This document shows positions 26,563 to 47,900 of a stretch of DNA of 64,000 nt, piece after piece; position 1 is the first letter of the stretch, and every line of letters begins with the position of its first letter. The DNA lies in assembly GCA_963732005.1 (NCBI GenBank), contig CAVSXT010000005.1, positions 237,788-301,787 of the forward strand, given 5' to 3'. This stretch comes from an uncultured Acidobacteriota bacterium (GTDB taxonomy: Bacteria > Acidobacteriota > Thermoanaerobaculia > Multivoradales > UBA5704). The position numbers were made by a program, and so were the translations under genes. Under the pieces are notes generated by a model. It saw only the letters and a program-made list of their open reading frames with translations. It did no database searches and was not told the origin of the DNA.

Positions 26563-26580
26563 GTAGAATCAATAGTTTAA

Positions 26581-26640: not shown

Positions 26641-26642
26641 CT

Positions 26643-27683: not shown

Positions 27684-27696
27684 CAGATAAAGCCCC

Positions 27697-30388: not shown

Positions 30389-31541
30389 TCCTCTTCCTGA
30401 AGAGTAGGAACGTCGACATGGAGTCGCAATCCCACCTGACTGATCTGGTCTCTTCCGACAGCTGGTGCAGGACTACCTCAAGACGTGGGCCGACCAGTCG
30501 CAATCCCACCTGACTAATCTGGTCTCTTCCGACCCTGTCCGTGGCGGTCATCCTGTTCATCGCAGGGGTCATGTTCGTCGCAATCCCACCTGACTGATCT
30601 GGTCTCTTCCGACCAAGCTGCCGGACCGCTATGGAGGCGGAGCGCTGGGCAGTTAAGTCGCAATCCCACCTGACTGATCTGGTCTCTTCCGACGCTATGA
30701 ACCTTTCCCTTGAAAAGGCGACTGATTTCAGAAGTCGCAATCCCACCTGACTGATCTGGTCTCTTCCGACGACACCCGCGTCGACGCCCCCACTCTCATC
30801 ACCTTCCCGAACCGTCGCAATCCCACCTGACTGATCTGGTCTCTTCCGACTGTTCTAAAGGGCAACCAACCGCCTCCCCTCGGGCAGTCGCAATCCCACC
30901 TGACTGATCTGGTCTCTTCCGACCCGTATCCCAGACCGGCAGTGTTCTGCCCCTAGTGAGGTCGCAATCCCACCTGACTGATCTGGTCTCTTCCGACTCC
31001 TTCCCTCGACCGCGACCGAGAAGCCCAAGGCCACCACCTATCAAGTCGCAATCCCACCTGACTGATCTGGTCTCTTCCGACAGCGAGGCGATGAAGGAAG
31101 CTCGCGTGCTCGTCGAATCTCTCGGTCGCAATCCCACCTGACTGATCTGGTCTCTTCCGACCGAAACACCCGCTGTATGTTCCCTATCACTACGCGCCGT
31201 CGCAATCCCACCTGACTGATCTGGTCTCTTCCGACAACCTCCTTGCCGACGGCCTCAGCATCGAGGACTTCGGTCGCAATCCCACCTGACTGATCTGGTC
31301 TCTTCCGACCTGACCAGCTATCCCGCGGCCCCCGCGACGCTGGGTGAGTCGCAATCCCACCTGACTGATCTGGTCTCTTCCGACGACCAGACGAACCCCC
31401 ATCTCATCCGGGCGAAGAAGCCCCTCGCCGTCGCAATCCCACCTGACTGATCTGGTCTCTTCCGACGGAGCGTACGGCCATGGAGCGGGTCAAGTTCCAA
31501 AGAAGTCGCAATCCCACCTGACTGATCTGGTCTCTTCCGAC

Positions 31542-31720
31542 TGCCGCCTTTTTAACTTCCTTATTATCAAAGAGTTGGAGGCCCTCCGGCCGTTACCTGC
31601 CGAAGCGGGCTCTTTCAGGAGAGAAAATCGTCCTTGGCTTGGCCGTCGCCGGTCATCGTAAGTGCTGAGGAGATGTGAGTTAGACGCTCGGCCGTTACCT
31701 GGGTGCCAAAATGGCGAATT
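31542..31720 (-). promoter_or_regulatory. Putative CRISPR leader
   Basis: Non-coding and AT-rich next to the last repeat (TTTTTAACTTCCTTATTATCAAAGAGTT); contains a 13-bp direct repeat CGGCCGTTACCTG at 31587 and 31689. The distal boundary is approximate. Confidence 0.65.
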
Positions 31721-32040
31721 TGGCTTGGCATCATCTATGCTCCGGCGCCGCTCAAGCCGAGATAGAGATCCGGATGGGCACGATGCCCAGGATGTCTTCG
31801 GGGCTCACACCCAATAGATTCGCACCCTGTCGTGGGCCTCGTCAATCACGCATGAAATTCGTGTTCCGATTGCGGCGGCGCATTGGCGCGCGGCGGTGGT
31901 TTCAAGGCTCGCATTGCGCGGCGCGTTCGTGCCGGAGGAGCTGGCCATGATCGTGGACTGCAAGGGCCTGCGCCGGAGCCTCTTGGACCCAGCCTCCGGG
32001 CCTCTGGTCTCGAATGCTGCGCGGTGGCTTCGGCCAGGCG

Positions 32041-32499
32041 CTACGGCGACTGGTCTGCTTCATGGGCCGCGAGCAGGTCGGCCGAGGCCGTGGCGGCATG
32101 CGGGCTGCGGATCGCCTTGGGGAAGAGCACCGTGAGAGTCCTGAGCGGCAGGTGCCGGTCCCAGCACTGCCTGGGCTTGGCGTCGGTGCGCGTGGTGATG
32201 GCGACCGCGGCGACGTCGAGATAGCCGAGGTGCTCCCGGTCGGAGTCGCGATCGTCGATCGGGCTGGCGCGGAAGGAGCCGGAGAGCTCGAGCCAGTTGC
32301 CGTACACCCTGGTGATGCGATCGTCCGCGTCGTAGGGGTAGCCGTGGCGGTCGGCGTCGACCAGATCGACCCTGAGGCTCACCTGCTCGCCGGCGAAGTG
32401 ACCGATGACCAGCAGGGAAAGGTTGTGGCGGCCTGAAAAGTACGATTCGTCCGGGCGGATCCAGCCGGTGAGCAGGACGTCGCGGGCTTGCTGGTTCAT
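32041..32499 (-). CDS. Hypothetical protein (152 aa)
   Basis: ATG at 32499; protein-like beta-rich composition; same orientation as neighbours. Confidence 0.5.
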   Translation of the reverse strand: MNQQARDVLLTGWIRPDESYFSGRHNLSLLVIGHFAGEQVSLRVDLVDADRHGYPYDADDRITRVYGNWLELSGSFRASPIDDRDSDREHLGYLDVAAVAITTRTDAKPRQCWDRHLPLRTLTVLFPKAIRSPHAATASADLLAAHEADQSP

Positions 32500-32594
32500 C
32501 GCGGTCTCCGGGTGAAGTGCTTGCTGGTGGTGAATCGCTCGGGCTCGGTCGCGTCGGCGGTCTCTGGCGTGGCTGCTGGTGGCGAGGGCCGGGA

Positions 32595-33401
32595 TCACGA
32601 CATCCGCGCGGCGGCGTCGCGGTCCTCCGGGCCGGCGGTGTAGCGGCCGGCGCGGTCCAGGTTGTCGAGGGTCAGGACGATGCGCCCGGCCTCGGCGGTG
32701 ACCCGAGCGCGCTGCCCGGGGGTGAAACCGAGCCGCGCCAGCCAGCGGCCGGAGAAGCGGATGGACGGTAGGCCGGCGTCGGCGAGGGCGCGGGTGACGG
32801 CAAGGCTGCGGGGCGCCGGCCGCCGCGGCGAATCGAGCAGCCCGGCGCCCTGCGCGATGGCCTCGGCGACGAGGTCCATGGCTCCGTCCACGGCGGGGAT
32901 GTGAAAGCAGAGGCGGGCGGGGCGCGGGGCGGCAAGGCAGACGGCGCCCGCGGGGGAATCGGCGACCAGGCGCGGCGGTGGCGCCGCGGGCAGACGCCAC
33001 TCGACGGCGAGCAGCGAGCCGTCCACGGCCTGGGAGAGGCGGGCGAGCACGGGGACGCAGGGGGGGACGGATTGGCGCCAGAAGGCGAGCATGGCCGGGC
33101 CGAGGGGCCGCCCATTGGGATCGGAGGGGGCGAGACGGATGGCCAGCCTGACCCAACCGTCGGCGGTGAGCTCGAGATCCTGCGGCACCTCGAAGGAGCA
33201 CTGGACCGCGAAGCGCTTCCAGGGTTCCGGGTCGCCGCCGGTGGCGAGGGTCACATGCAGCTGCTGGCTGAGAATGGTTACCAAGGTGGCGCGGTAACCC
33301 GAGCGCTCGGCGGCATTGCGTGGAGTAGGTTGGGTCCGCACCACGGTGTCGGTGCAGCCGGCGATCTGGAGCAGGTAGGTATCGGTGTGCGGGAAGGTCA
33401 T
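32595..33401 (-). CDS. Protein with a C-terminal SymE-like (AbrB-fold) toxin domain
   Basis: C-terminal 'PSIRFSGRWLARLGFTPGQRARVTAEAGRIVLT' matches the SymE pattern P.I.L.G.WL...GF..G....V....G.L.I. Confidence 0.6.
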   Translation of the reverse strand: MTFPHTDTYLLQIAGCTDTVVRTQPTPRNAAERSGYRATLVTILSQQLHVTLATGGDPEPWKRFAVQCSFEVPQDLELTADGWVRLAIRLAPSDPNGRPLGPAMLAFWRQSVPPCVPVLARLSQAVDGSLLAVEWRLPAAPPPRLVADSPAGAVCLAAPRPARLCFHIPAVDGAMDLVAEAIAQGAGLLDSPRRPAPRSLAVTRALADAGLPSIRFSGRWLARLGFTPGQRARVTAEAGRIVLTLDNLDRAGRYTAGPEDRDAAARMS

Positions 33402-33417
33402 GAGATCGGCGCTCCTT

Positions 33418-34077
33418 TCAGCGGGCCGGGGCGGCGGGTGCGGTGGCCCGTCCGGCGAGATCGTTTAAACGCATCGCGGTGCCGCAGGGGCAGATGGGCA
33501 GGCCGGCGGCGATCCACTTGGCGGTGATGCGAGCGGTGTAACCGCAGCCCGGGCAGGCGACCTTGTGCAGGCGGGTGGTCTGCTTCCGCCGATCGGGATC
33601 GGCGACGAGGCCGGCATGGGGGAAGGTGCCGAGGCGGGCGGCGAGGTCGGCGAGGCGGGCGGCGAGCTCGGGGCCGGCGGTGGTGTCGGTCATGCGGCCG
33701 CGCAGGCCGAGGGCTAGGGCCAGGCGGCGGAAGGGCGGGCCGTGCTTGGCGCGGGTGCCGACGGCGGTGTGCACGAGCTCGTGGACCAGGACCTCGAGAA
33801 CCGGCAGGGGCTCGCCGAGCAGCGGCGAGACGAAAACCTGATAGATGCCGTCGCGCGAGGCCTCCGGCGGCCAGCACTCGCCGATGCGGCGGGAGCGGCG
33901 GGCAAGAGCGCCCACCGAAGGAAAACCAATCGAAACCTGGACCGCCGCCGGCACCGGGATTCCCTGGGACTGAAAGTCGGGCCGGAGGTGGTTGACGGCG
34001 CGATGCAGCCACGCCTCGCGGGTGGCGGCTGCCGGCGGTGATGGCAGGGGCGGGGCCGGTTTGGCGATCTTGAGCAT
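33418..34077 (-). CDS. SprT-like zinc metallopeptidase with C-terminal Zn ribbon
   Basis: 'VLVHELVH' (HExxH), 'HGPPFRRLA', 'CPGCG...CPCG'. Confidence 0.8.
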   Translation of the reverse strand: MLKIAKPAPPLPSPPAAATREAWLHRAVNHLRPDFQSQGIPVPAAVQVSIGFPSVGALARRSRRIGECWPPEASRDGIYQVFVSPLLGEPLPVLEVLVHELVHTAVGTRAKHGPPFRRLALALGLRGRMTDTTAGPELAARLADLAARLGTFPHAGLVADPDRRKQTTRLHKVACPGCGYTARITAKWIAAGLPICPCGTAMRLNDLAGRATAPAAPAR

Positions 34078-34199
34078 GGATAGATTGTATATCTAAATGG
34101 CAAACAAGTCAATCTTTCTCTCGAGACCGCGGGCGAAAAGCGAGCGCCTGAGGCGACCCTCGGGCCGGATCGGGAAGACGGCGGGGTGAGGCTAGGAAT

Positions 34200-34520
34200 C
34201 TACGGGCGAGGCGACTTGCGGGGGCGTCCGGGAGACTTCAGCTTGGGCACGGGTTCGCCGCGGCGGCGGGCGCGGGTGCGCTGCTGGCTGAGGCGCTGGC
34301 GGCGCCGGACCTCGGGATCGGTCGGAGGCTCCGGCAGCAGCTTGGAGATGGTGGCCGCCACCGAGGGAATGAGGCCGAAGGCCTCCGCCTGGGCCAGGAC
34401 GCCGGTGACGAGGATCTCCGTCTTCGTCAGGCCGCGGCGCTCGGCGAGCTGGTCGAGGAGCGCTCCGACCTCCGCGGAAACCCGAAGACCGATGTGCTGG
34501 CGGGGCGGCACGCCTGGCAT
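34200..34520 (-). CDS. Ribbon-helix-helix DNA-binding protein
   Basis: 'HIGLRVSAEVGALLDQLAERRGLTKTEIL'. Confidence 0.65.
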   Translation of the reverse strand: MPGVPPRQHIGLRVSAEVGALLDQLAERRGLTKTEILVTGVLAQAEAFGLIPSVAATISKLLPEPPTDPEVRRRQRLSQQRTRARRRGEPVPKLKSPGRPRKSPRP

Positions 34521-34680
34521 TGTCGCACAGCCGCCGCGGCGGCGCCCCGGAAGGGTGGCGACCGAAGCCAGGGACCGAGGTCGATCGCGTGCGCGCGGGG
34601 CAGCGCTGGGAGGTCGGAGGCTGCGGCCCGCGAGCGTTCTTTTTTAAGAATCAAAATATATATGTACTCGTCGCCGAGCC

Positions 34681-34829
34681 CTGTGGGAACTGTGGAAATC
34701 GCGCTTCTCAGCGATTTCCAAGGGACTGCGGGAAGGGTGGGAAACCGGCGAACAAGGGAGCGGTCCACAGGCCGCTGGCGGTGGGGAGCCGGTTTTCCAC
34801 GCTTTCCGCAGGCCCGGCAGTTTCCACAG
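34681..34829. other. Branched palindromic (three-way-junction) non-coding element
   Basis: Outer stem CTGTGGGAACTG/CAGTTTCCACAG; perfect 10-bp hairpin TGGAAATCGC/GCGATTTCCA (34693-34720); 26-bp stem GGACTGCGGGAAGGGTGGGAAACCGG/CCGGTTTTCCACGCTTTCCGCAGGCC. Confidence 0.75.
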
Positions 34830-35135
34830 TGGCCAAGAGGGAGGTGCTGGGTGCGTCCGCCGAGGGGTGGGCGGCGTCCGGCCAGAGCGCCCGAGATCCG
34901 TGGCCCGGCCTTGGGCGGTCGCGAGGTCGAGGGTGGTCTGAATGGGCCCGGCGAGGGAGGAAGAGCGCTCTTTCTGGTCTAGACCATATATATAGCTTGA
35001 CACAACTATGATTCCGACCATAGTGTCTTATGCCAGGTCCGATCCCGCCAGCGCCGGCTCCGGATGCTGTGGTCGGGCATGAGGTCTGGACCGCTTCCTG
35101 TCGGAAGGGATCCGTGTGGGAAAGGGGCAGCACAG

Positions 35136-35273
35136 ATGCGAGTCGATCGGGATCGTGGGCGGGTGGAGCGCGTGGAGCTGACGACGGGTCTTGACGAGGC
35201 GTCGCTGGCGAAGGTCAAGGGCGGCCTCAAGTCGGAGCGGGTCCAGGGGGACCCAGGGCCGGGCGGCGGCTAG
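35136..35273 (+). CDS. Small peptide with a double-glycine-type leader (45 aa)
   Basis: MRVDRDRGRVERVELTTGLDEASLAKVKGG-LKSERVQGDPGPGGG; RBS AAAGGGG. Confidence 0.5.
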   Translation: MRVDRDRGRVERVELTTGLDEASLAKVKGGLKSERVQGDPGPGGG

Positions 35274-35578
35274 CGGTCGGGTGTGATGTCTGGGCAGGCG
35301 GCGGGGCCGGGGGGAGCTTGGCGAATGTCCTCCCCGGCCTCGCGGCGTCTTGAGCGGGGCCGGGTGGGCGGGTGGACTGTCGACGCTCGCCGAGCCCAGG
35401 GGCGACTACCGCAAGCCGCTTCGATAAAATCAACTTATCGCAAGTCAGGAGTTGCCATGACCCCATCCGCGCCTGCCGTCGAGGCGGAACGCGCCGCGGC
35501 CGCCGGTGGCACGGCAGGTGGTGGAGAGGTTCGTTTACGAGAGGATCGTCGCGCCTGGCATGGAGCCGCCCATTCCGT

Positions 35579-36019
35579 TCAGCTCAAGTCGTCCGGGGGC
35601 GCCACGCCCGCCGCCGCCACCTGGCGCGGCCGCCGGGCCGCGCCGTCCCAAGCCAGCACCACGCGCGGGCGCGCGCGCCGCATGGCTTGAGGCGCGCCGC
35701 GGCCGGCCGCTGGGCCGCCGAGCGGCCTCGCCGGCCCCCTCGCCGGCGGTCGCGCCACCCGCCCCGCCGCCGGCGGTCGCCGGTGCCGCACCCGCCAGTA
35801 GGCGCAACATTCCAGCTCCACCGCCTTGAGCAGCCAGTCCCCTCTGTCGGCGTCCTCGTCCCAGGTCTCGACCGCGGCCAGGAGCGCCCGCTCCAGCACA
35901 TCCACCATGCTCGCCGGGGGAATCCGATATCCCGACAGGAGGCGCCGCAGCCCAGGCCGGATCAGCGAGACCACCAGCGTCATCGCCACCAGGTCCTGCT
36001 GCGAACCGTTGCCTTCCAT
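35579..36019 (-). CDS. Sigma-70 region-2-like protein lacking a recognisable region 4
   Basis: 'LRRLLSGYRIPPASMVDVLERALLAAVETWDE....DWLLKAVELECCAYWR' follows the ECF region-2 pattern, then a low-complexity tail. Confidence 0.45.
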   Translation of the reverse strand: MEGNGSQQDLVAMTLVVSLIRPGLRRLLSGYRIPPASMVDVLERALLAAVETWDEDADRGDWLLKAVELECCAYWRVRHRRPPAAGRVARPPARGPARPLGGPAAGRGAPQAMRRARPRVVLAWDGAARRPRQVAAAGVAPPDDLS

Positions 36020-36204
36020 TCTCGGCTCTCCTCAGCCCGGCCACCACACCGGCGCCTGCCTCTCCCGCCTCGACAGCTCTGCTTTCGCGTGCGCCGGGCT
36101 CGGCGGCGCCGCCCCGCAGCGGATCGCCGCCAGCCTCGCCGGACGCCCCGCCCTGCCACCAGGTCGCCCAGCACGGGTTGCTCCGCTCGCCCCGCCCGCC
36201 ATCG

Positions 36205-37494
36205 TCACAGCCCGGCCGCGGCGCCGAGCGGATCCTCGCTCTCGGCATGCCCGCGCAGCACGCGGTCGGCGAGCAGCCGCGGCGGCGTCAGCAGCGGCGG
36301 TCGGCCAGCACCGGTGACCGCCGCCCGCCGCAGCCGCCGTTTCCACTCGACGCAGCGCGCGTGCAAAGCTTCCGGCCGCTCCGCGGCGAGCCGCGACAGG
36401 CCCGCGAACCCCGACGCGAACCACCCGCCGGCGCCCGGGAACGCGACCGCCAGTGGGCGGGTCAGCTCCGCGACCGCGCCGAAGCGTCGCGCTTCGATCC
36501 GCAGCAGCACCTGCTCGAAGGTGGCGCGCGCCGCCTCCGCCGCGCTGCCGCGCTGCAGCAGCTCGCGGCGCACCGGCCGCAACAGCACCTCCGCCCGGCC
36601 ACGCTCCCCAGCCGCGGCGGCGATCCTCGCCTCCGCCCAGCGGCGCGCCACGGCTTCGGCAGGCGACGACGCGAGCGGCACCAGCGCCGCGGCGCGCCGC
36701 TGTTGCTCCTGCGCCGCATCGAGATCGCCCAGCGTCGCCGCGATCTCGGCCAGGCCCAGCCACAGTCGCGCCGCGAGCGAGGGTGCAAAGGCGGCATCGA
36801 GCAGCTGCAGCGCCAGCTCGCTCGCGGTCGCCGCGTTGACCAGGTCGCCGGTGTCGAGCAGCAGCAGCCCCAGCTCGGCCTGGCAGGCGGCCGCCGGCCC
36901 GGCGGCGCCGAGCCGCGCGAACAGCGAGCTGGCGCGCAGGAAGTGGCCGACCGCCGCGTCGACGTCGCCGCTGTCGGCCGCCAGCTGCGCCCGGCCGGCG
37001 CTTGCCAGCGCCGCCGCCTCGCAGGGGCCGCCGGCCGGGACGAACGCCTCCATGGCGCGGAAGCTGTCGTCGGCCAGGCGCAGCTGCGCCGCCTTGAGCC
37101 GTGCCTTGCCCGATAGCCAGTGGGCGAGCGCCGCCGCCTGGCGGGCCAGCCCCTGCGCATCGTCCGCCAAGACCGCGGCGAGCGCCGCGCCCAGCTCGGC
37201 GACCGGCCGCGCGTCGCCCGCTGGCGCGAACAGCTCGCTCTCCGCCCGCAGCGCCAGCAGCTTGACCAGGCTCGGCCGGCGATAGCGCGGCTGGTGCCGG
37301 GCGGCCGCCGCACGCTCGCGCGCCGGCAGTGCCAGCAGCTCCGCCGCCAGCTCTCCGTCCAGCCGGGCCGCCCGCATCAGGCCGGCGGCGCTGCCGGCCA
37401 TCCCGTAGGCGTAGGCGGCCGGTGGCATCGCCGGGCCGGGGGCCGGGCGCGCCGCCGTGCCGGCCTGGTCAGGACGCGCCGGCCGGAAGGGCAT
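36205..37494 (-). CDS. TPR-like alpha-helical repeat protein (divergent paralog, no HTH)
   Basis: Ala/Leu-rich helical hairpins; C-terminal segment resembles those of 37469, 39961 and 41432. Start uncertain. Confidence 0.6.
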   Translation of the reverse strand: MPFRPARPDQAGTAARPAPGPAMPPAAYAYGMAGSAAGLMRAARLDGELAAELLALPARERAAAARHQPRYRRPSLVKLLALRAESELFAPAGDARPVAELGAALAAVLADDAQGLARQAAALAHWLSGKARLKAAQLRLADDSFRAMEAFVPAGGPCEAAALASAGRAQLAADSGDVDAAVGHFLRASSLFARLGAAGPAAACQAELGLLLLDTGDLVNAATASELALQLLDAAFAPSLAARLWLGLAEIAATLGDLDAAQEQQRRAAALVPLASSPAEAVARRWAEARIAAAAGERGRAEVLLRPVRRELLQRGSAAEAARATFEQVLLRIEARRFGAVAELTRPLAVAFPGAGGWFASGFAGLSRLAAERPEALHARCVEWKRRLRRAAVTGAGRPPLLTPPRLLADRVLRGHAESEDPLGAAAGL

Positions 37495-38878
37495 CGCTTG
37501 CCTCCTTGGCCGCCGCCCGCGGCACACTCCACCAGGAAAGCGAGGGCCGGCGTGCTGCGTCCAGCCGCGCGGCGAGCACGCCCACGAGCTCGGCGGTCAG
37601 ACGCTCTTCCCTGCACGCCTGCTGGAACCGGAGCAGGGTCGCCATCGCGTCGCGCCCGACCTCGGCCGGTCCGAAGGCCGGCAGGATCTGGTCGGCGAGC
37701 TGCCGGACCGCCGCCTCGTCACCCTCCCCGAGGAGCAGGCTCGCGAGGTCCAGCCAGGCGAGCCCGGCCTCGATCCCGAACTGGTGCGCGACCAGCGCCC
37801 GCGCCGCCTCGTCCAGCTGCCGTTTGGCGGCCTCCCGGTCGCCGGCCGCGAGCAGGATGCGCGCCTGCGCCCGGCGCAGCAGCGTCGGGACCCTGCACCG
37901 GTCCAGGCCATCCTCCGGTTGCAGCGCGGCGGCGACCGTGGCGGCCGCCGCCTCGAAGCGCCCCAGCGCGATGGCCGACCACACCTCTGCGCACCACAGG
38001 TAGGGGCGCAGCGCCGCCGAGCAGGCGGCCGGGCGGCTCTCGTTCAGCCGCCCGGCGGCCGCCGCGAGCAACGGCGGCACAGCCTCCGGCCGGCCCAGGT
38101 GATGGAGGCACCACGCCTGCTGGAGCAGCACCTCGGCGCCGCTCATCCCTTCGAGCTCGCCGCCGGCCACCTCCCATGCTTCAGCGCCCAGCATCGCTTC
38201 GACCCGCTCGAGCAGCGCCACCGCCTCGCCGAGCCGCCGCTGCTCGCGGCGCAGGACCGCGGTTTGCGCCAGGATCTGCGCTTCGACCTGGGGATCGCCG
38301 GTGCCGCGCGCGCACCAGCTCCACGCGGCGTCGAGCGCCTGGTCCGCCGAGTGCGGCTCGCCCAGCAGGCGGCGCGCCATCCCCAGCCGCGCAAGGCCGA
38401 TCGCCGTCAGGTCCGCCACCCAGGCCGGGTCGTACCCCTCGCCGAGGTGGCCGGCGATCCGGATGGCGACGAACGCGAGCCGCGCGGCGCGATCCGGCCG
38501 CTCGGCCGCCACCTCCTCGAGGCCCTTGGCCAGGAGCAGCCGGCAGAGGCCCCAATGGTGATAGGACTCATCCCTCTCGACGGCCCGGAGCTGCTCCTCG
38601 AAGCTCAGGGCGCCGAGCCCCTGCCAGAGAACCGGTGCGGCCGTGCCCTCGGTCGCGACGATCACGTCGTCGCAGTGCCGCACCGCGCAGCGGAGCCGCC
38701 GCAGCTCGGCCTCCGCCTCCCGCCACTCGGGGCAGTGGTGCACCAGGTCCGGCACCACCTCGCGGGCGATCGCCTCGGCGTCGAGCGCCCCGCCCACCAG
38801 CCGGGCGAGGAGCAGCGACGTCGGCTGCCGCGCGGTCGCGCCGGCGAGCAGTGCGAGGTGATCGGCGTGGTTGGGCAT
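37469..38878 (-). CDS. TPR-like helical repeat protein (no HTH)
   Basis: 'HHWGLCRLLL', 'ARLGMARRLLGE..SADQAL..AW', C-terminal 'AGLAWLDLA.L.L.EG....VRQLA..IL..F....V.RDAMATL..F'. Confidence 0.72.
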   Translation of the reverse strand: MPNHADHLALLAGATARQPTSLLLARLVGGALDAEAIAREVVPDLVHHCPEWREAEAELRRLRCAVRHCDDVIVATEGTAAPVLWQGLGALSFEEQLRAVERDESYHHWGLCRLLLAKGLEEVAAERPDRAARLAFVAIRIAGHLGEGYDPAWVADLTAIGLARLGMARRLLGEPHSADQALDAAWSWCARGTGDPQVEAQILAQTAVLRREQRRLGEAVALLERVEAMLGAEAWEVAGGELEGMSGAEVLLQQAWCLHHLGRPEAVPPLLAAAAGRLNESRPAACSAALRPYLWCAEVWSAIALGRFEAAAATVAAALQPEDGLDRCRVPTLLRRAQARILLAAGDREAAKRQLDEAARALVAHQFGIEAGLAWLDLASLLLGEGDEAAVRQLADQILPAFGPAEVGRDAMATLLRFQQACREERLTAELVGVLAARLDAARRPSLSWWSVPRAAAKEASDALPAGAS

Positions 38879-39481
38879 GTCTTGGCTCAGCAGGCGGACA
38901 TCCAGGCACCTGCCTGGGCCGGCGCCTGCGCTTGCGATGTTGCGGAAGCGTAGGACCGGGGGCGTCTGGCGGCAATCACGCTGGGGACGAGATCAAGCCC
39001 GGCCGCAACGGCGGGGCGGTTTGGCCCACCGTACCGTCGGTCCACGCGCTCTGCGGCCTCAGCTGGCGCCGCGGGGCGCTCTCGCCTGCGTTGTAGCTGA
39101 GGCGAGCGCCGGGCTGTCGCGCGCCCCCGGTGGGTTCGCGCTGCCGGATCGGCGGCCCCGGCGCACGCCCGGCAGCATCTCGGAGGGCACTTGGCCTGGC
39201 TGTTCCGCCTGGGCATCGCGCTGCTGCTGGGAAGCCTCCGCTGCAAGCGCCGGTCGCGGGGCGCCCCCGGCCGGCCTCAGCATGGATACCGATGGCGGGC
39301 GAGCTGGGGGAGCCGCCGGCGCCGCTCGCCGCGTCTGCCGCCCCTTCCCGTTTCATGCCTCCTCGGCGCACACTGAGCAGCAATTGGGGGGGCCTTTGGC
39401 CCGCCCGGTACCGGGATCAAGGAGGTCCCCGCCCCGGCCATGGCGGTCGTCGCGGCGGACCTCGCCGAAAGGAGCTTGCGC

Positions 39482-39817
39482 ATGCCCGCTTCCTTCCCCA
39501 GGCGCGCCGTTCTCGCGCTGGCGCTCGTCGTTGCGCTCTCCCTGCCCTCCGCCATGGCCGCGTCGCCCCTGGCCGCGGCCGGCGCGCCGCTGCTGCGCAC
39601 GCCGGCCGCCGGCAGCACCGCGATCACGCGCCTGTGGAGCTGGCTCGCGCCCTGGTGGCCCGACAATGGCTGCAGCCTCGACCCGAACGGCGGCTGCGCC
39701 AGCATTGCTCCGGTGCCGCCGGTGCGCCCCTCAAACTGCGGCAGCGCCGATCCCGATGGCCGGTGTCGAAACGTGATCGCGGTGCACCCATCCACGGCGC
39801 GTATCAGGCGGCACTGA
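39482..39817 (+). CDS. Small secreted peptide precursor with two C-x(3)-DP[ND]G-x-C-like modules (111 aa)
   Basis: RBS AAAGGAG; signal peptide 'MPASFPRRAVLALALVVALSLPSAMA'; amphipathic 'TRLWSWLAPWW'; 'NGCSLDPNGGC' and 'NCGSADPDGRC'. Confidence 0.7.
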   Translation: MPASFPRRAVLALALVVALSLPSAMAASPLAAAGAPLLRTPAAGSTAITRLWSWLAPWWPDNGCSLDPNGGCASIAPVPPVRPSNCGSADPDGRCRNVIAVHPSTARIRRH

Positions 39818-39960
39818 TCAACGCGAACAGAGCCTGCTGCGAGGGTCAGGGTTCGAGGAACCTGTCCTCTCTCGGTGGACGCGGTCGGGCGTCGGGAGTG
39901 CGGGCGCGCTCCCACGCGAGGCCGGCGCACTTTGCCCGGCGGGAACGAGGGTGCGCTGCG

Positions 39961-41442
39961 CTATCCGGGCTGGAACGGCGGCGCCGGCTCGTGCCGGCTC
40001 TGCTCCAGGTAGTCCAGCAGCCGCCGGGCCAGCTCCGCCGTGACGGTCTGCGCCGCGGCTGCCTCGCAAAACAGGCGGAGCGCCGCCAGGGCCTCCCGGT
40101 GCACCCGTTGGCCGCGGAAGATCCAGAGCATCTCCTCGGCCAGGCCTACAACCTCCGCGCGCCGGCCCGCTTCGAGGTGCAGGATCGCCAGCTCCAGGGA
40201 TACCAGGGCCGTGTCGTAGCCGTTCTCGAGCGCGGCAAACTCGCGCCGGACCTGCTCGAACGCCGTCAGCGCCTCTTCCCGCTGTCCGCGGCCCGCCGCC
40301 ACCCGGCCCCGCAGCCAGCGCATCCGCACGGTGTCGAGCTTGTGGTCCAGCTCCTGCGTGAGCTGCTCGAGCGCGGGTAGCCTCGCCGCCGCCTCCTCGT
40401 ACTCGCCGAGGTGGCATAGGTTCACGACGAGGTTGAAGCTCAGCACGCACTGCTCGCGAGCATCGGTGGCGTCGCCTACGCGCGAGGCGGCCTCGCGCAG
40501 CGCTCGCAGTGCCTGCACTGGCTCTCCCGCCTGCTCCAGCACCACCGCCCGGTTCAGCAGCAGCCGCCCGCGCGACTGTGGAGGCGCCATGGCCAGCGCC
40601 CGGTCGAGTAGCTCGAGCGCGATGTTGAACTGCCGCTGCTCGCGGCGCAACGATGCTTCCAGGTCGAGAAGTCGCCATTCGCCAGGCTGCGGCTCGCCGG
40701 CAGGCCCGCCCGCCCGCCGGAGGGCCCGGACCGTGGCGAAGCTCGCGTCGGCCGCCGGCAGGTCGCCCGCCACCCGCTGCGCGCTGGCGACGAACGCCCA
40801 TGCGTAGCCTTCCAGGCTCCAGCATTGCGCCTGCTCACCGGGCGCCGTCTTCGCCACCCGCACTGCCAGCAGCGCGAGGCGGAGCGCTTGGCCCGCGTCG
40901 TCCGCCGCGGCCCGCGCGCTCGCTGCGCACAGCCGCTCGACGAGGTTCTGAAATTCCTGCCACCAATCGGGAAGCAGCAGCCTCTCGCGGGAGGCGAGGT
41001 CCGGCGGGCCGGAGAGGTCGCGCACCTCCACCGCCTGCGTGCCAAGAGCGCCGGCGGCATCGTCGCGCCCGTCGTCGGCTTCGGCTGGCGACGCCAGGAG
41101 CTCCGCCACGGCCGCGCGAGCCGCGGCGCCGAGGTCGCGCTCGAGCATCTCCCCCACGGCCATGGCCACCTCCTCGCCGGCCGGCGCGGCGCTGCCCTCC
41201 GACCACCGTCGCGCGAGCCGGATCGCGGGCAGCACCACCTCGTCGATTGCCCAGGGCGGCACCCCCGCCACCTTCGCCAGCCTCTCGATGCTGGCGCGCG
41301 ACGGGGTCTCTTTTCCTTCCTCGAAGCGGCAGATCGTGCTCCTGTGCAGGCCCGCCGCGGTGGCCAGCTCGCGCTGCGTCCAGTCCCGCAGCAACCGCAG
41401 GAACCCGACCAGCACTCTCGAGTCGGCGGCATCAGCTGGCAT
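39961..41442 (-). CDS. XRE-HTH + TPR-like regulator
   Basis: N-terminal 'FLRLLRDWTQRELATAAGLHRSTICRFEEG'; TPR-like body; C-terminal 'YDTALVSLELA...VHREALAALRLFC'. Confidence 0.82.
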   Translation of the reverse strand: MPADAADSRVLVGFLRLLRDWTQRELATAAGLHRSTICRFEEGKETPSRASIERLAKVAGVPPWAIDEVVLPAIRLARRWSEGSAAPAGEEVAMAVGEMLERDLGAAARAAVAELLASPAEADDGRDDAAGALGTQAVEVRDLSGPPDLASRERLLLPDWWQEFQNLVERLCAASARAAADDAGQALRLALLAVRVAKTAPGEQAQCWSLEGYAWAFVASAQRVAGDLPAADASFATVRALRRAGGPAGEPQPGEWRLLDLEASLRREQRQFNIALELLDRALAMAPPQSRGRLLLNRAVVLEQAGEPVQALRALREAASRVGDATDAREQCVLSFNLVVNLCHLGEYEEAAARLPALEQLTQELDHKLDTVRMRWLRGRVAAGRGQREEALTAFEQVRREFAALENGYDTALVSLELAILHLEAGRRAEVVGLAEEMLWIFRGQRVHREALAALRLFCEAAAAQTVTAELARRLLDYLEQSRHEPAPPFQPG

Positions 41443-42931
41443 CGGTCGCCTGGGCCTCGAATCGCAGTCCGGGATCGCGGCGCGCCCGCTCCAGGTAGTC
41501 GAACAGGCGCCGGGCCAACGCTGCTGTCGCGGTGTCGTTGGCCGCCGCCCTGCAATACAGCCGCAGCGCCGCCAGCGCCTCGCGGTGCACCTGCTGCGAG
41601 CTGAAGATCCACAGCATGGCCTCGGCCAGTGCCCGCACCTCTCCGAGATGGCCCTCCTCCAGCTCGAGCATCGAGAGCTCAAGCGATACCAGCGCCGTGT
41701 CGTAGGGATTGCCTGCCTGCGCGAACTGCCGCCGCACCTCCTCGAAGGCGACTCTCGCGGCCTCGCGCTTGCCCAGCCCGGCCGCCACCCGCGCGGACAG
41801 CCAACCGTGTCGTAGGAGGTCCAGCTCGTTGCCCAATTCAACGATCTTGTTACGCAGTTCCGGGAGCTGTGCCTCGGCTTCCTGGTGCCGCCCAAGGTGG
41901 CAGAGGATGACGATGCCATTGAATCGGACCACCAGCCGATCTCGCGGCTCGCGCGCCGCCTCGATCAGCGGTGCGGCCTCACGCAGCACGGCGAGCGCCG
42001 CGTCGATCTCCCCTTGGTACTCAAGCGTCACCGCCCTGTTGAGCAGGATGCGGCCCCTTGCCGCCGCCGGCGCCGCCGCCAGCGCCCGGCCCAGCAAATC
42101 GAGCGCCTGTTCGAACTCGCCCAACTCACGCCGCAGCGATGCTTCGAGGTCCAGCAGGCGCCATTCCGCCAGCGGGCTGTCTGCGGCGGCCGCGCCGGCC
42201 CGCCAGCACTCCGAGGCGGCGGCGAAGCTCTTGCCCGCCGCCTGCAGGTGCCCGCGCACGCGCTGTGCGTTGCCGACGAAGGCCCAGACCCACCCGAGCA
42301 GCCGCGACCGCCACGCCGGTTCGCCCGGGGCCAGCTCCGCCGCCCGCAGCGCCAGCCGCGCCAGCTCCTCGGCCCGCTGACCGTCGGCCGCCGCGGCGCG
42401 CACGCTCTCGTCGCACAGCCGCTCGGCGAGCGCCCAGGTCTGGTGCTCCGGCGAGGTCTCCACCCGATCGCGCCGCGCCGTCGGCGCCATTTGGCGCAGC
42501 TCCTCCCACAACCGCGCCGCCTCCCGCCGCGCCGCCGCCAGCCGCCGGACGCGCGCCGCCTCGAGCAGCCGCGAGCGCGTGAGGCTCGCCGCCAGCAGCC
42601 CGATCCGCGCTGCGGCCCGCGCCACTCGCTGCCGCTCGCCGCGCGAGGGCTCGATCGGCGACCGCCCGGCCGCGGCCGGCGCCGGCGCTCCCGGTGACAG
42701 GCCCCGCAGGAAGAGCAGCACCAAGTCCACCTCCCCGGCCTCGTAGCCCATCGCCGCCGCCAGGACGTCGAGCGTCTCGCGCGACAGGATCTTTACCGTC
42801 CCACCCTCGTAGCTACCCACCAGCTTGCGCCGGACGCCCGCTGCGGCCGCCAGCTCCGTCTGGCTGTAGCCGCGGGCGGTCCTCAGGTGGATGAGCGCCA
42901 GGCTCAGCGGCGGCGGCGCGGGTCGTGGCAT
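41432..42931 (-). CDS. XRE-HTH + TPR-like regulator (tandem paralog)
   Basis: 'LIHLRTARGYSQTELAAAAGVRRKLVGSYEGG'; shares 'EWRLLDLEASLRR', 'RGR.LLNRAV.LE', 'YDTALVSLEL', 'VHREALAALRL' with 39961..41442; 11-nt overlap. Confidence 0.82.
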   Translation of the reverse strand: MPRPAPPPLSLALIHLRTARGYSQTELAAAAGVRRKLVGSYEGGTVKILSRETLDVLAAAMGYEAGEVDLVLLFLRGLSPGAPAPAAAGRSPIEPSRGERQRVARAAARIGLLAASLTRSRLLEAARVRRLAAARREAARLWEELRQMAPTARRDRVETSPEHQTWALAERLCDESVRAAAADGQRAEELARLALRAAELAPGEPAWRSRLLGWVWAFVGNAQRVRGHLQAAGKSFAAASECWRAGAAAADSPLAEWRLLDLEASLRRELGEFEQALDLLGRALAAAPAAARGRILLNRAVTLEYQGEIDAALAVLREAAPLIEAAREPRDRLVVRFNGIVILCHLGRHQEAEAQLPELRNKIVELGNELDLLRHGWLSARVAAGLGKREAARVAFEEVRRQFAQAGNPYDTALVSLELSMLELEEGHLGEVRALAEAMLWIFSSQQVHREALAALRLYCRAAANDTATAALARRLFDYLERARRDPGLRFEAQATDAS

Positions 42932-43355
42932 AGGGCGGCCTCCATTGTCGCATGTCCTAAATACACCGGTGATCGCCACCCGTGCCGGCGAGACATCGCG
43001 GCGGAACCTCGCCCTTCACCTGCCCGCTTTCGAGACAAAGGTTCCCCGAAAAGCAACTCCGGGTGATTCTCGCGTATCTTGAAGTTCTTGCAAAGAGGAA
43101 TTTGTGGATTCTCTCGCGCGCTCTCGGCCGCGCCTTCGGCGCGCGGACCGGGAGCCGCTTATCCCCATGAACCTCGGACCCGCGCGAATCCCGTCTCGCG
43201 CAGGTCCTCAGCCGTTGCAACGCGTCCTCGCTTCTGGTGTGTCCGGGCACCCTCTGAGATTCAGCCTGAGCACCTCCCCTCCTTAGTCGGCGAGAAGGCG
43301 CCTGGGTAGGCGGCCGGCAAGCTGCGAGAGCATGATTCCGTGGGCAGGAGCCGTC

Positions 43356-44618
43356 TTACTCCGATCTCTTTGCTCTCGGCGGCCTTTGATAATGAGTTGC
43401 TGTAACAAAGTCGATGAAAGCCACGGCAGACCCAACCGCGAGGCGGGCATGACGCGGTTCCAGGCCCCGGTGGTGGCCGTCGCGGCCGTGCCCCGAGCCA
43501 TAGAGCCCGCGGAGTTCAGCAAGGTACTGAGTCAAAGCTGCGAGGTTACGGAGAATAAGTCGTATTGTCTCTGCGCCTTTGGCTTCGTCGGAGATGCCCT
43601 CCGGAACTAAATTGAGTTCCTTCGCCAGCAGCTTGGTGAGTTTCGGTAAATCTGCCTTGGGCGACACTGCAATACCCCTCTTCTTGAGAATGGTCTTGCA
43701 GCAAGTTTCGACCAGGTCCTTAGCGGTTCCAATCGCGAGTGTCGGATCTCGCTCTACTGCTGCCTCGAGACGTTCAATCTCCTTCTGCATCCATCCTGCG
43801 TCGAGGGCGTCGGCGACCGTCTTTGCCCGCGAGAGCGATCTTCCGCCGCTCCCAGGTTGACTCCTCCTGGGTACGAATCGAGGATGGCCGGCAACGGTCT
43901 CCTCCTCGATCAGATTCCAGCCTGATGGACGAAGAATCTCATTGAATTTCTGCGCGAGCTTAAGAGCCTCGTTCCGGTCGGGTCGCACGGCGGGATGGAT
44001 CACTTCGCAAATAAATCGAAGGAAATTTGCGGACGATCCTTTCATTAGATCGAACCGGCCATCGCCAAAAATCCAGTCGTCAGGCCAATCATTCGGGTTG
44101 TTAACGCGATGTTGCCAAATATCATCAGCTGCGTTCTGAAAGCGGTAATCGTTAGAAGGTAGCTGTTCAAGGTCAAAGAGACGCTCAAGGAATTCGACGT
44201 CTCCCAGTTGACCATACCAAGGCACGTTGCCGATCCTCAGAGTGTCAGCTATGCTCTGGCGTGTTGCGCGGGACACCTCTTCGTCGGAAAGACGCCAATC
44301 GGCGCGTGTCTCTACGGTCGGTGCGATAAGTGCAGTGTACGAATCGCTCGAAAATTGCGCCAAGGCCGATGCGAGGCGTTTAGTGATCTGGTTTTCCAGT
44401 CCCTCGCGCTTGCCTCCCAACCGAGCATAAGCCGTTGGCTCTAATTGCAGATAGATGGTCCACGAGGTTGTGCCACCGTTCCAATTGTCGTAACCCGTTT
44501 CTTCAACGCGGGCCTTCGCGATTCGCAAGACTTTAGCCGCATCGGCCATTCCTTCCGTCGAGAGCATCGCCTCAGCGGTCGCAAGGTAGCGTTCTAGATC
44601 GTCAGGGCCTAGGTTCAT
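43356..44618 (-). CDS. Abortive infection family protein (AbiJ N-terminal-like + Abi_C domain)
   Basis: 'FLERLFDLEQLPS.DYRF..A..DIWQH.VNN..DW..DWIF.D.RF.L'; C-terminal 'AIGTAKDLVETCCKTIL', 'LRGLYGSGHGR', 'ARLAVGSA'; visibly lower GC. Confidence 0.8.
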   Translation of the reverse strand: MNLGPDDLERYLATAEAMLSTEGMADAAKVLRIAKARVEETGYDNWNGGTTSWTIYLQLEPTAYARLGGKREGLENQITKRLASALAQFSSDSYTALIAPTVETRADWRLSDEEVSRATRQSIADTLRIGNVPWYGQLGDVEFLERLFDLEQLPSNDYRFQNAADDIWQHRVNNPNDWPDDWIFGDGRFDLMKGSSANFLRFICEVIHPAVRPDRNEALKLAQKFNEILRPSGWNLIEEETVAGHPRFVPRRSQPGSGGRSLSRAKTVADALDAGWMQKEIERLEAAVERDPTLAIGTAKDLVETCCKTILKKRGIAVSPKADLPKLTKLLAKELNLVPEGISDEAKGAETIRLILRNLAALTQYLAELRGLYGSGHGRDGHHRGLEPRHARLAVGSAVAFIDFVTATHYQRPPRAKRSE

Positions 44619-44939
44619 GAGTATTCATCCATCAGGATACGGCGACCTGCTCCACTCTACTGTAATAGGTCCACGAAGGGGGAGCGAGCCGGGTCGTGCC
44701 TCACCTCGGTGCAATCGGCTCGGGCCTCGCATTCGAGCGCCGGCCGCTTGCGGCCCCGGATCTCGAGCCGCCTACTCGGCGGAGCGGCCGAGCTAGAGAT
44801 TTGAATAGATGGTTAGCCATGCTGCGATGTAGTTTTCGCATACGGCCGAGTGTTGCTTTAAAAGCTCTTGTCGATTAGGCTTTTCCTGCGACAACTCAAA
44901 TTAGGCCTCGCGGTGCGTCGGTCCCGCCGGGAGGAGGGC

Positions 44940-47900
44940 ATGTCCAAAGCGGTCGGGCGGCTTGAAGGGGGGTTGCGCCCAGCGCTCCGGCGACAGTCGG
45001 GGCGAATGGCCGTAGCGCTGGCCGTCGGTCTGCTGGCGGCGGTGGCAGGATCGGCGCGCCTCTGCGGCCAGACCGTCACGTTGCAGGCCATCGCCGACAG
45101 CACGATCAAGCAGGAGAGCCCCAATCAGAGCTTTGGCGCTCAAGCGACGCTGGTGGTGAAGGAAGGCGGCAGCCGCGTGCTGGTCCGCTTCGATCCGGCG
45201 GCGATCGGCGCCGCGGTGGGCGGCGGCAGCCTGGCGTCGGCCCAGCTGCGGCTCTACATCGGCACCAATGGCGGCAACTGGGGGACGACCGGGCGCACTG
45301 TCGACGTCTACCGGGCCGACGCCTCCTGGACGGAGATGGGCGCCACCTGGAACTGCGCCGTGGACGCCAATCCCGCAAACAGTGTCGCTGATTGCGCGAC
45401 CCCGTGGAACGGCGGCACGATCGAGGACGACGCCACGGATACGGTGGTCGTCACCAACACCAGCAGCGGCTGGATCCAGTTCGACGTCACGGCCGACGTC
45501 CAGGCCTTCCTGGCTGGCACGGCGAACGACGGCTGGCTGCTCGAGAAGACCGACGAGGGGCAGGGCGGCCGCGTCGATCTGGTGTCCAGGGAGGGGTCGG
45601 CGGGGCAGGGACCGCAGCTGGTCCTGATCAGCCAGAGCGCCGCGGTGGACACGGTGCCGCCGGCTGTCGCCATCGTCGCGCCGGCGCAGCCGGTGCTGGT
45701 CAACATGCCGTCGCCGCCGATCGCCGTGGCCTATCAGGACGGCGGCTCGGGGGTCGATACCTCGACGCTGCGCGTGGTGCTCGACGGCCAGGACCTGACG
45801 GCAGGCTGCACGGTCGGCGCCCAGTCGGCAAGCTGCACGTCACCGGCGCTTGCCGCCGGCGCGCATACGGTGACCGCCAACGTCCAGGACCACGCCGGCA
45901 ACGCCGCTACGGCGAGCAGGAGCTTCCAGCTCTTTCTCGGTCCGGCGGTCAGCACGCTGACGCTCCCGGCCGTGGCGGATACCTACATCACCGGCGCAGC
46001 GCCGGACAAGGAGCATGGCCGCGCGGCGATCCTGCGGGTCGCCAAGAGCGGACCCCGCCGGGCGCTGGTGCAGTTCGACCCGGCGGCGCTGGCCGCGGCG
46101 CTGGCGGGCAGCCAGTTGCTGTCCGCTCAGCTCGAGCTCGCGATCGCCGCCAACGGCAACAACTGGGGAACGAGCGGCCGGACGGTGGGTGTGTATCCTA
46201 TGACGGTGGCGTGGTCCGAGGCGGCCGCGACCTGGGACTGCCCGGCCGACACCAACCTCGACAATCACCAGCCGGACTGCGCCGCGCGCTGGAACGGCGG
46301 CGCCTTCGCGGCGAGCCCCACGGCCACCGCGCTGCTCACTCGCGATCTCGGCGGGACGCTGGATTTCGACGTCACCGCCGACGTCGCCGCCTTCCTCGCC
46401 GGCACGGCAAGCGACGGCTGGCTGCTCAAGAAGACCGACGAGGCGGCGAGCGGGCGGGCCGACTTCGTCTCCCGCGAGGCCGGCTCCGGCCAGGCGGCGC
46501 AGCTGGTCGTCGTCTTTCAGGTCCCGGCGCCCGACACCACGCCGCCGACGCTCACTATCACCAGCCCCGCCGACGGCTCGTACTCGCGGACGCCGTCGAT
46601 CCAGGTCACGGGCACGATCGGCGGCACGGTCGCGGCGGTGACGGTCGGCGGTCAGCCGGCGAGCCTCGCCCAGGGCGGCTTCACGGCCAGCGTGACGCTG
46701 GTGCAAGGCGCGAACGTGCTGGTCGCGGTGGCGACCGATGCGGCCGGCAACCAGGCCTCGGCCACCGCCTTGGTGACGCTCGACACGACACCGCCGACGT
46801 TGACCCTGACGACGCCGTCGCCCGGGCAGCTCACCAACCAGCCGCAGGTCCAGGTGGCGGGCAGCGCCACCGATGACAGCGGCATCGCCACGCTGACGGT
46901 CGGCGGCCAGCCGGTCACTCTCGCCGCCAGCGGTAAGTTCAGCACCCTGGTGCCGGTGGGCGAGGGCGTGAGCTCGATCGAGGTGGACGCCGTCGACCTC
47001 GCGGGCAACCAGCAGACCGTCGTCGTGAGCGTCAACCGCTTCAGCATCCCGACGGTCGCCATCGTCTCGCCGCCGGACCTGAGCTACGTCAACGCCACCA
47101 CGGTGACGGTGAGCGGCACGGTCGGCGCGGCGGTGACGGTCAGCGTCAACGGCGTCGCCGCCGCGGTCTCCGGCAACAGCTTCACCGCCGCCGGGGTGCC
47201 GCTCGCCGAGGGCGGCAACAGCCTGACGGCGACCGCCACCGATGCGCAGGGGCACGTCGGTCTGGCCACGATCAACGTGGTGCGCGACCTGACGCCGCCG
47301 CACGTGGCCATCTACACGCCGGCGGCCGGGGCGACGGTCGGCGACAGCGCGGTCGCCGTCTCGGGCCTGGTCAACGACATCGTCGCCGGCACGGTCAACG
47401 CCGGCAACGTGCAGGTGACGGTCAACGGCGTGCCCGCGGTGGTGGCCAACCGGGCGTTCCTCGCGCCCGCGGTGCGGTTGCAGCCGGGCACCAACGTGCT
47501 GACCGCGGTGGCGGTGGACGCCAGTGGCAACCAGGCGCAGACCAGCGTCACGGTGCAGCAGGCGCGGCCGGCCGCGCCCAGCGTCGCCGTCGTCCTGGGC
47601 GGTGGCCAGAGCGCGGTCATCGGCACGGTGCTGGCCCAGCCGCTGGTGGCGGTGGTGCAGGACGCGGTGGGCCAACCGGTGCCGGGCAAGACGGTGCTCT
47701 TCCGGGTGCGGGGCGGCAACGGCACGCTGGATGGCGGCCGGCGCGATCTGGGGGTGACCAGCGATGCCAACGGCCAGGCGCTGGTGCACTTCACCCTCGG
47801 CACCCGTGCCGGCGCCGGCAATCAAGTGGTCGAGGCGTCGGCGGTGGGCAGCGGACCGCCGGCGGTCTTCCTGGCCAGCGCGCTGCCGGGCGCCCCGGCG

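Follow-up and report, generated by a model that had tools for sequence, protein, structure and literature searches.

The 64-kb window analysed here (64,000 nt in total; positions 237,788 to 301,787 of contig CAVSXT010000005.1, assembly GCA_963732005.1) derives from an uncultured acidobacterium of the Thermoanaerobaculia and carries, at 35136-42931, a block of genes grouped around a small secreted-peptide gene, P (Table 1). Two genes for proteins that combine an N-terminal XRE-type helix-turn-helix (HTH) domain with C-terminal tetratricopeptide repeats (TPRs), A and B, lie on one side of P; the HTH-less genes C and D and the open reading frame (ORF) E lie on the other. A receptor gene of the HTH-TPR type running head-on into a peptide gene is a module previously undescribed. 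Together, B and P probably constitute a receptor-ligand cassette, complete in itself, that operates in the manner of RRNPP quorum sensing and is built from a receptor family unrelated or undetectably related to that of RRNPP systems and from a new kind of propeptide.

As ORFs alone are weak evidence in DNA of ~75% GC, candidate genes were checked by the GC content of their codon positions. They followed the coding pattern GC3 > GC1 > GC2, and A, B, P, C and D had GC3 values of 0.86-0.91 (0.87 for P). The entire A-B-<P-C-D block recurs in an unrelated Joint Genome Institute (JGI) contig, L201, with protein identities of 64, 55, 48, 42 and 53%, respectively, and with the D ortholog again following that of C; this gene order is thus not due to chance. 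A and B are 47% identical across 483 aa (E=4e-102), and the stop codon of A overlaps the start of B. A sequence-only reading of this DNA had placed two XRE-HTH+TPR proteins beside a secreted peptide gene, with which Pfam, BLASTP and signal-peptide evidence agree. B converges directly on P; A is followed by no peptide gene.

Table 1. Positions of the genes, peptide and RNA features of the P locus, followed by features of its surroundings (numbering of the 64-kb window).
Feature	Position	Strand	Description
A	41432..42931	-	XRE-HTH+TPR receptor paralog, 499 aa
B	39961..41442	-	XRE-HTH+TPR receptor, 493 aa; 'R1' position, convergent with P
P	39482..39817	+	secreted precursor, 111 aa
Signal peptide of P	39482-39559		residues 1-26, n-h-AxA type
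Core 1 of P	39662..39697	+	D-N-G-C-S-L-D-P-N-G-G-C; canonical C-x6-C; x1=S, x2=L, x5=N, x7=G
Core 2 of P	39734..39766	+	N-C-G-S-A-D-P-D-G-R-C; degenerate
Leader RNA of P	39414..39476	+	apical hairpin in covarying basal helix; covariance model
C	37469..38878	-	HTH-less receptor paralog, 469 aa; 'R2' position, divergent from P
D	36205..37494	-	TPR (MalT-like) protein; overlaps 3' end of C
E	35579..36019	-	ORF earlier called sigma-like
Seryl-tRNA synthetase, tRNA-Ser(tga), tyrosine integrase	24983-27683		tRNA at 26475-26562
CRISPR array	28892-31541		~17 copies of 37-nt repeat GTCGCAATCCCACCTGACTGATCTGGTCTCTTCCGAC
Mutator-family (IS256-like) transposase gene	28848/29034-30359	+	splits the CRISPR array between repeats 2 and 3
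Three small genes	32595-34520	-	268-aa protein with C-terminal SymE/AbrB-like domain; SprT-like/Zn-ribbon protein; weak ribbon-helix-helix (RHH) match
AbiJ_NTD3 + Abi_C gene	43356-44618	-	abortive-infection type, 1e-54

Pfam recognized both A (HTH_3 at 8e-7, plus TPR matches) and B (HTH_3, 1e-9; HTH_31, 2e-9; TPR_12, 2e-7), the HTH_3 and HTH_31 matches exceeding the Pfam cut-offs and thereby giving both proteins the N-terminal XRE-type HTH expected of RRNPP(A) receptors of the NprR/PlcR/Rgg/PrgX/AimR classes. These matches were generic: neither Pfam nor NCBIfam assigned A or B to an RRNPP family (Rap, Rgg, NprR, PlcR, PrgX, AimR or ComR), and when a profile of 60 B homologs was searched against all Protein Data Bank (PDB) sequences, the matches listed at E<=1 were generic HTH and TPR sequences and included no RRNPP protein. 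More than 320 homologs of B were found, with identities of 40-56%, nearly all of them from soil metagenomes or metagenome-assembled genomes (MAGs) of Thermoanaerobaculia.

The AlphaFold2 (AF2) model of B (pLDDT 84.6) comprises the HTH (residues 1-60), a disordered linker (117-155) and 16 helices (158-482) forming a superhelix of 7-8 TPRs. Inspection of the receptor sequence by eye made no signal peptide or transmembrane segment evident, as expected of a cytoplasmic receptor, and the model shows a TPR superhelix of the peptide-binding type, as in RRNPP(A) systems. Foldseek comparison of B with the PDB ranked the TPR domain of the eukaryotic polarity protein LGN/Pins first (E=4e-6), followed by the Rap-pheromone complexes 4gyo and 8rst (E ~1e-4, TM ~0.64) and by PlcR-PapR (E=1e-3), all of which bind extended peptides in their inner groove. 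The peptide-binding groove that the sequence-only reading presupposed is consistent with this superhelix and its matches to LGN and Rap complexes. LGN/Pins, an 8-TPR superhelix of 15% identity, is the closest fold to both B and C, a matter of structural resemblance and not of functional homology; the likeness to Rap and PlcR is structural as well, homology not being demonstrated. Many polar residues of the A helices (the first helix of each repeat) are nearly invariant, namely N220, R223, R257, D260, E262, S264, R293, E303 and Q304 and, further along, R329, D370, R373, W376, Y409, D410, R449 and E450.

A GAAAGGAG ribosome-binding site precedes the start of P by 7 nt, and the precursor has, behind its signal peptide, a Trp-rich motif (LWSWLAPWW) ahead of two Cys-loop cores. 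It matched no Pfam or NCBIfam entry. A first search returned 35 homologs, whose alignment consists of a signal peptide, a Trp-rich LWSWL..LW segment and 2-4 (D)NGCSLDPNGRC repeats, and when 1.84 billion representative proteins were searched with a profile, at least 2,234 clusters (counted at 50% identity) reached E<=1e-3, 961 of them E<=1e-10. Because it belongs to a conserved family and has a ribosome-binding site and a signal peptide, P is a real gene rather than a chance ORF.

Among 163 ORFs of this family (median length 106 aa), 160 have K/R residues followed by a hydrophobic core and an AxA-like site, and 150 an even number of Cys residues in the mature part. Each precursor contains 2-5 copies of the core consensus [DKE]-[NEA]-G-C-x1-[ILVAM]-D-P-x5-G-x7-C, in which G, C, D, P, G and C are practically invariant and x1 and x5 highly variable. 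At the four variable core positions, identity amounted to 0.48 within a precursor vs. 0.21 between precursors, and in 108 of 130 precursors 2-4 aa separated the last core from the stop. The first core of P fits the consensus. The second has C-G instead of G-C, a transposition that results in C-x8-C, and is followed by an atypical 16-aa tail. Two large secreted proteins, P0168 (783 aa) and P0255 (731 aa), contain dozens of Cys-free x-D-P-N-G-[RK] repeats and match the peptide profile via the DPNG turn only; this repeat family may be related.

Linkage between receptor and peptide genes was surveyed from both sides. A double-core DNA pattern, scanned against one genome per species, occurred at 120 loci; almost all of these belong to Thermoanaerobaculia, Holophagales or unclassified Acidobacteriota MAGs. 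About 12 hits, from Streptomyces, Actinoplanes, Syntrophaceae, Vicinamibacterales and OM182, were treated as chance, since neither a peptide ORF of the family type nor a nearby receptor accompanied them. An A/B-like gene lay within 500 bp of 93 of the 98 small ORFs with at least two cores, and for 78 the nearest receptor was arranged tail-to-tail with a gap of 0-150 bp. Conversely, a search of metagenome contigs with the receptor profile gave 80 loci with 93 testable receptor genes, 54 of which were followed within 400 bp by a peptide ORF with at least two cores, in convergent orientation in every case. Where no peptide gene lies downstream, the receptor is in many cases the next gene in an array of the type R-> <-P R-> <-P R->. 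The adjacency of homologous receptors and peptide genes on which the earlier proposal was staked is thus recurrent, and a receptor gene adjoining an ORF for a predicted exported propeptide is the arrangement typical of RRNPP(A) systems.

Single MAGs carried up to at least six such loci, scattered along their chromosomes. Inspection of five neighbourhoods of 17-21 kb revealed toxin-antitoxin (TA), restriction-modification (RM) and housekeeping genes. No transporter, protease or modifying enzyme was shared among the five and no immunity or export gene recurred, so that the linked genes expected of a cluster for a bacteriocin or a ribosomally synthesized and post-translationally modified peptide (RiPP) were not found there. 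PADLOC recognized A and B at the generic HTH level only and P, C and D not at all, with no match to a defence system.

Covariation was assessed by mutual information (MI) in pairs of a peptide with its convergent receptor (R1, n=106) or with its divergent neighbour (R2, n=45). In the strongest associations with R1, core position x1 covaried with columns 299, 300 and 301 (helix A3) and 337, 338 and 340 (A4), and x5 with columns 256, 257 and 260 (A2) and 290, 293 and 297 (A3); R2 gave almost no signal. Contingency tables associated F/Y300 with x1=G and A/S/T300 with x1=I/V/T, W256 with small polar x5 (N/D/S) and A/G256 with bulky x5 (H/Y/F/L/W), K297 with D/S/N, R293 with N/S/D and Y293 with H, a physically sensible complementarity of size and charge. 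These effects remained inside bins of overall identity (median pairwise identity of R1 TPR domains, 45%) and were reproduced separately in peptide-selected (n=63) and receptor-selected (n=43) pairs, with odds ratios of 4.5-190.

Placed on the 34-residue TPR register, which was anchored by the small residue at position 8, G15, A20 and A27, the covarying columns correspond to positions 1/2 and 5 of TPR2, 2/6/8/9 of TPR3 and 6/7/9 of TPR4. In TPR-peptide complexes, these register positions are largely groove-facing. The receptor-peptide co-variation envisaged in the earlier reading was hence found between x1/x5 and columns predicted to face the groove, and suggests that the receptor groove may directly contact these two peptide positions. 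In the window, A and B are identical at columns 256, 257, 260, 279, 293, 297, 299, 300, 337 and 340, and their residues at the specificity columns fit x1=S and x5=N/D of P. B, in the R1 position, is the predicted cognate receptor of P, with DNGCSLDPNGGC as a candidate ligand of its TPR domain (residues 158-493), and A, owing to its identical groove residues, is predicted to sense the same peptide.

The HTH-less proteins are related to the receptors to different degrees. C aligned with B at 30% identity over 323 aa (BLASTP, E=4e-14) and with residues 130-491 of the receptor profile at 99.2% probability (hhalign), carrying a helical domain in place of the HTH at its N-terminus. In Foldseek, its AF2 model (pLDDT 81.7) led to LGN/Pins and Rap, the TPR part dominating the result. 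C has only ~10 homologs and differs from A and B at every specificity column. D matched TPR_MalT at 1e-8, under the Pfam cut-off, showed no significant BLASTP similarity to B or C, and matched the receptor TPR profile at 91% probability (hhalign, E=1e-6), so that its relation to the receptor TPR domain is a distant one; it is apparently co-operonic with C. Of the four paralogs proposed in the sequence-only reading, A, B and C are therefore clear, and D is only a distant TPR relative. Both C and D either lost the HTH or never possessed one, differ from A and B in their groove residues, and probably act via protein partners or another ligand. A C-like/D-like pair also lies beside another receptor-peptide module (L205), in a different arrangement. 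A 74% identical C paralog, P0302 (486 aa), is apparently encoded elsewhere in the same genome, suggesting a second C-type locus.

The gap between C and P, at 560 bp, is unusually long compared with the 80-160 bp of typical modules; the orthologous block in L201 has a similar gap of ~480 bp. A tblastn search of this gap in the window for a pseudogenised HTH upstream of C gave no signal, and the ~530 bp that separate C from the P leader (38879-39413) contain no recognisable gene, HTH remnant or operator. Beyond D, E shows the coding type of codon-position GC (GC3 0.88) and has an Arg/Pro/Ala-rich C-terminal half of low complexity. It had been put forward as a sigma-like partner of the HTH-less copies, an idea that finds no footing: E matched no Pfam, NCBIfam or PADLOC entry, and the orthologous block of L201 contains no equivalent of it. 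Sigma and anti-sigma domains (sigma70 region 2/4, zf-HC2) had no Pfam match in E or the C N-terminus even at E<=10, nor in nine C-family members. An H-x4-C-x2-[C/W] pattern gives the C N-terminus an anti-sigma look, a resemblance that Pfam did not support.

Upstream of P lies a leader of ~60 nt, with an apical hairpin (GCGGCC-N5-GGCCGC) inside a basal helix whose 3' arm (..CCUCUCC; CUCC) abuts the ribosome-binding site. In an alternative fold, this arm could base-pair with GGAG over a GAAA loop, and it could sequester the site. A covariance model built on 11 equal-length seeds found 75 instances in 877 kb, that of the window (34.9 bits, E=1.5e-5; minimum free energy -32 kcal/mol) and 74 in other loci (L005-L197). 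Leaders folded more stably with their own arms (-14.8 kcal/mol) than with arms swapped between loci (-13.3 ± 0.34 kcal/mol; z = -4.4). In an alignment fitted to the model, and thus biased toward structure, 85% of cells were paired vs. 79% after shuffling (0 of 500 shuffles equalled it), double-change cells numbered 74 vs. 35, and the covariation score reached 0.273 vs. 0.186 (slid controls <=0.10). RNAalifold detected no structure in a plain MAFFT alignment of the leaders, as indels in the basal helix misalign its arms, a problem resolved by equal-length subsets and the covariance model. Rfam at gathering scores returned tRNA-Ser alone from positions 26000-46000; the leader is thus absent from Rfam and may be a new cis-regulatory motif.

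The regions upstream of ~150 peptide genes share four common elements: the GAAAGGAG Shine-Dalgarno (SD) sequence, the ~60-nt leader, a -10-like box (GCACCAT(A/G)T) at -80 to -72 and a palindrome. The latter, GT(G/A)GATTAATC(C/T)AC, measures 14-16 bp and is found in many P promoters ~25 nt upstream of the -10-like box, for instance in L079, L147, L043 and L069, where it precedes the start codon by ~100-115 nt. Lying over the -35 region, it is a predicted operator of the kind typical of XRE dimers. Transcription is predicted to begin ~62 nt ahead of the start codon.

Among known systems, RRNPP/RRNPPA pairs such as NprR-NprX, PlcR-PapR and AimR-AimP resemble the present cassettes in several respects: the receptor is cytoplasmic and joins an N-terminal XRE-type HTH to a C-terminal TPR superhelix; an adjoining small gene for a Sec-exported propeptide completes a two-gene, self-contained cassette; and genomes hold many paralogous cassettes, frequently in variable regions, with diversified peptide positions. 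However, no homology is detectable by sequence or profile, the host is a diderm acidobacterium, the orientation is almost always convergent, and whereas RRNPP precursors release one linear C-terminal oligopeptide, the propeptides here are ~106 aa long and hold 2-5 Cys-bracketed cores. In streptococci, the peptide gene of group III Rgg/SHP pairs lies downstream of, and convergent with, the HTH-receptor gene, as here; SHPs lack a Sec signal peptide and are exported by PptAB, the repeat domain of Rgg is shorter, with five TPR-like repeats, and the host is Gram-positive. The Rap-Phr family, which provided the best RRNPP structural match to B, likewise includes HTH-less TPR receptors, comparable to C, and has undergone expansions akin to the family size seen here (up to six loci per MAG and at least 2,234 peptide clusters). 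In contrast to A and B with their HTH, Rap proteins have an N-terminal three-helix bundle that binds response regulators, and unlike the present peptides, Phr pheromones are linear penta- to hexapeptides without Cys, encoded co-directionally with rap. Multi-copy propeptides have a parallel in Rap(phi3T), with its tandemly duplicated pheromones and extracellular proteolysis (PMC11343458).

In the literature searched, RRNPPA systems are confined to Bacillota/Gram-positives and their phages (PMC9765709, PMC10075063, PMC12998947), and the family has no known outgroup (PMC12700828). No relevant account of RRNPP in Acidobacteria, Thermoanaerobaculia or Gram-negatives came to light in that search. 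The suggestion of an RRNPP-like system in a diderm acidobacterium, analogous or distantly homologous, draws support from architecture, adjacency, fold and covariation, its homologous variant having met with no detected homology. In these respects, the cassette would work like an RRNPP system without being a demonstrated member of the family.

In the mechanism that we favour, P is transcribed with its structured leader, as comparative analysis of the RNA shows, under an operator that overlaps the -35 region in many related loci, if not in the window. The precursor would be exported by Sec and its signal peptide cleaved, as its sequence suggests, after which each G-C-x1-Φ-D-P-x5-G-x7-C core may close into a disulfide-bonded periplasmic loop, and the 2-5 cores could be freed by proteolysis. 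A core peptide, a Cys-bracketed decapeptide, would then return to the cytoplasm, having passed the outer membrane, probably via an oligopeptide permease. There it may occupy the concave TPR groove of the convergently encoded receptor, where covariation would place x5 at TPR2/TPR3 (columns 256, 257, 260, 293, 297) and x1 at TPR3/TPR4 (299, 300, 337, 340). Binding might alter the XRE-HTH dimer on palindromic operators and thus bring about autoregulation of P and the neighbouring receptor gene.

Several points weigh against this interpretation. RRNPP family homology is detectable by neither sequence nor profile, and the fold is best matched by the eukaryotic LGN, i.e., generic for superhelical TPRs. 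The G, C, D, P, G, C scaffold is unusually conserved for a pheromone, P of the window itself has a degenerate second core, and its promoter contains no palindrome within three mismatches. As to the covariation, its p-values ignore phylogenetic non-independence, groove-facing positions were assigned from the canonical TPR register and not from model coordinates, the B-helix columns 279, 311 and 478 score highly too, and whole-domain distance (mirror-tree) correlations for R1 were no better with A helices than with B helices. No Opp importer genes were linked in the five neighbourhoods, and for cell-cell signalling in a diderm host, a peptide of ~1.2 kDa must cross the outer membrane twice. Finally, a search for the locus in sequencing runs returned only soil metagenome DNA runs and no expression data.

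The unusual conservation of the scaffold, which suggests a structural role, leads to a first alternative, in which the two genes are no more than a regulator and its target: the TPR domain would sense something else, and P would be a periplasmic or secreted Cys-loop effector of bacteriocin-like, adhesive or ion-binding nature. Tight linkage and the palindrome in P promoters fit local regulation equally well, the mature protein of 70-100 aa is larger than typical propeptides, and Cys-less DPNG[RK] arrays occur in large proteins as well. This explanation, however, leaves the complementarity between x1/x5 and the groove, confined as it is to the convergent receptor, unaccounted for, nor does it say why each paralogous effector gene should need its own co-diversifying regulator; with no immunity or export gene recurring in the five neighbourhoods, we regard it as unlikely.

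A contact of the kind suggested by covariation would be equally compatible with binding before export. The receptor might thus bind the unexported P precursor and report secretion flux, following the logic of type III secretion system (T3SS) chaperone/activator pairs or of FlgM, and a diderm cell would then require neither outer-membrane passage nor re-import. However, Sec export runs constitutively, either during translation or after it, and so offers no obvious signal to sense, the even Cys count and C-x6-C loops point to an oxidised periplasmic product, and many specificity classes per genome are hard to rationalise on such grounds. We therefore consider sensing ahead of export distinctly improbable.

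The surroundings of the block, a variable stretch, bear on a last alternative. Seryl-tRNA synthetase, tRNA-Ser and tyrosine integrase genes, the tRNA and integrase ~13 kb from the cassette, make up an insertion site of the kind classic for islands. The 3' end of tRNA-Ser has no second copy (attR) in the 64-kb window, and modules of this kind are multi-copy and scattered over the chromosomes of many MAGs, so that the proposed carriage on an island was not upheld. Between integrase and cassette lie the CRISPR array, near which no cas genes were seen, and the SymE-like/SprT-like/RHH trio, which looks like cargo of a conjugative element or a TA system. On the other side, directly upstream of A, the AbiJ-type gene occupies a low-GC patch (0.58 vs. 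~0.74) and was probably acquired horizontally. That the cassette is island cargo serving phage defence, addiction or element maintenance might be argued from these neighbours (tRNA-Ser and integrase, CRISPR array, insertion sequence, AbiJ and SymE-like genes), from the frequent TA or RM neighbours in other genomes and from the RRNPP systems that themselves often reside on mobile elements (PMC9765709), but is very improbable given the purely generic HTH matches in PADLOC, the missing toxin-like partner, the lack of attR in the window and the many chromosomal sites per genome, and it would concern the output of the system and so be compatible with peptide signalling.

Returning to B and P as a peptide-signalling cassette, a wider picture can tentatively be drawn, which we hold as possible rather than probable: Thermoanaerobaculia and Holophagales, both abundant in soil, would possess a large and hitherto unseen RRNPP-like family with disulfide-looped, multi-copy pheromones, read by cytoplasmic HTH-TPR receptors by way of a two-position x1/x5 code. 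Its pherotypes would number in the thousands, a dedicated structured leader RNA would control translation of the pheromone, and diderm bacteria would thereby have their first case of quorum sensing by a genetically encoded peptide and a cytoplasmic receptor. If true, this signalling logic would cross the monoderm/diderm divide, either by convergence or as the missing outgroup of RRNPPA. It would also provide a compact specificity code, x1/x5 against receptor columns 256, 260, 293, 297, 300, 337 and 340, that may be reusable for orthogonal synthetic circuits, and a first handle on cell-cell communication in the Acidobacteriota, bacteria that dominate soils and can hardly be cultivated.

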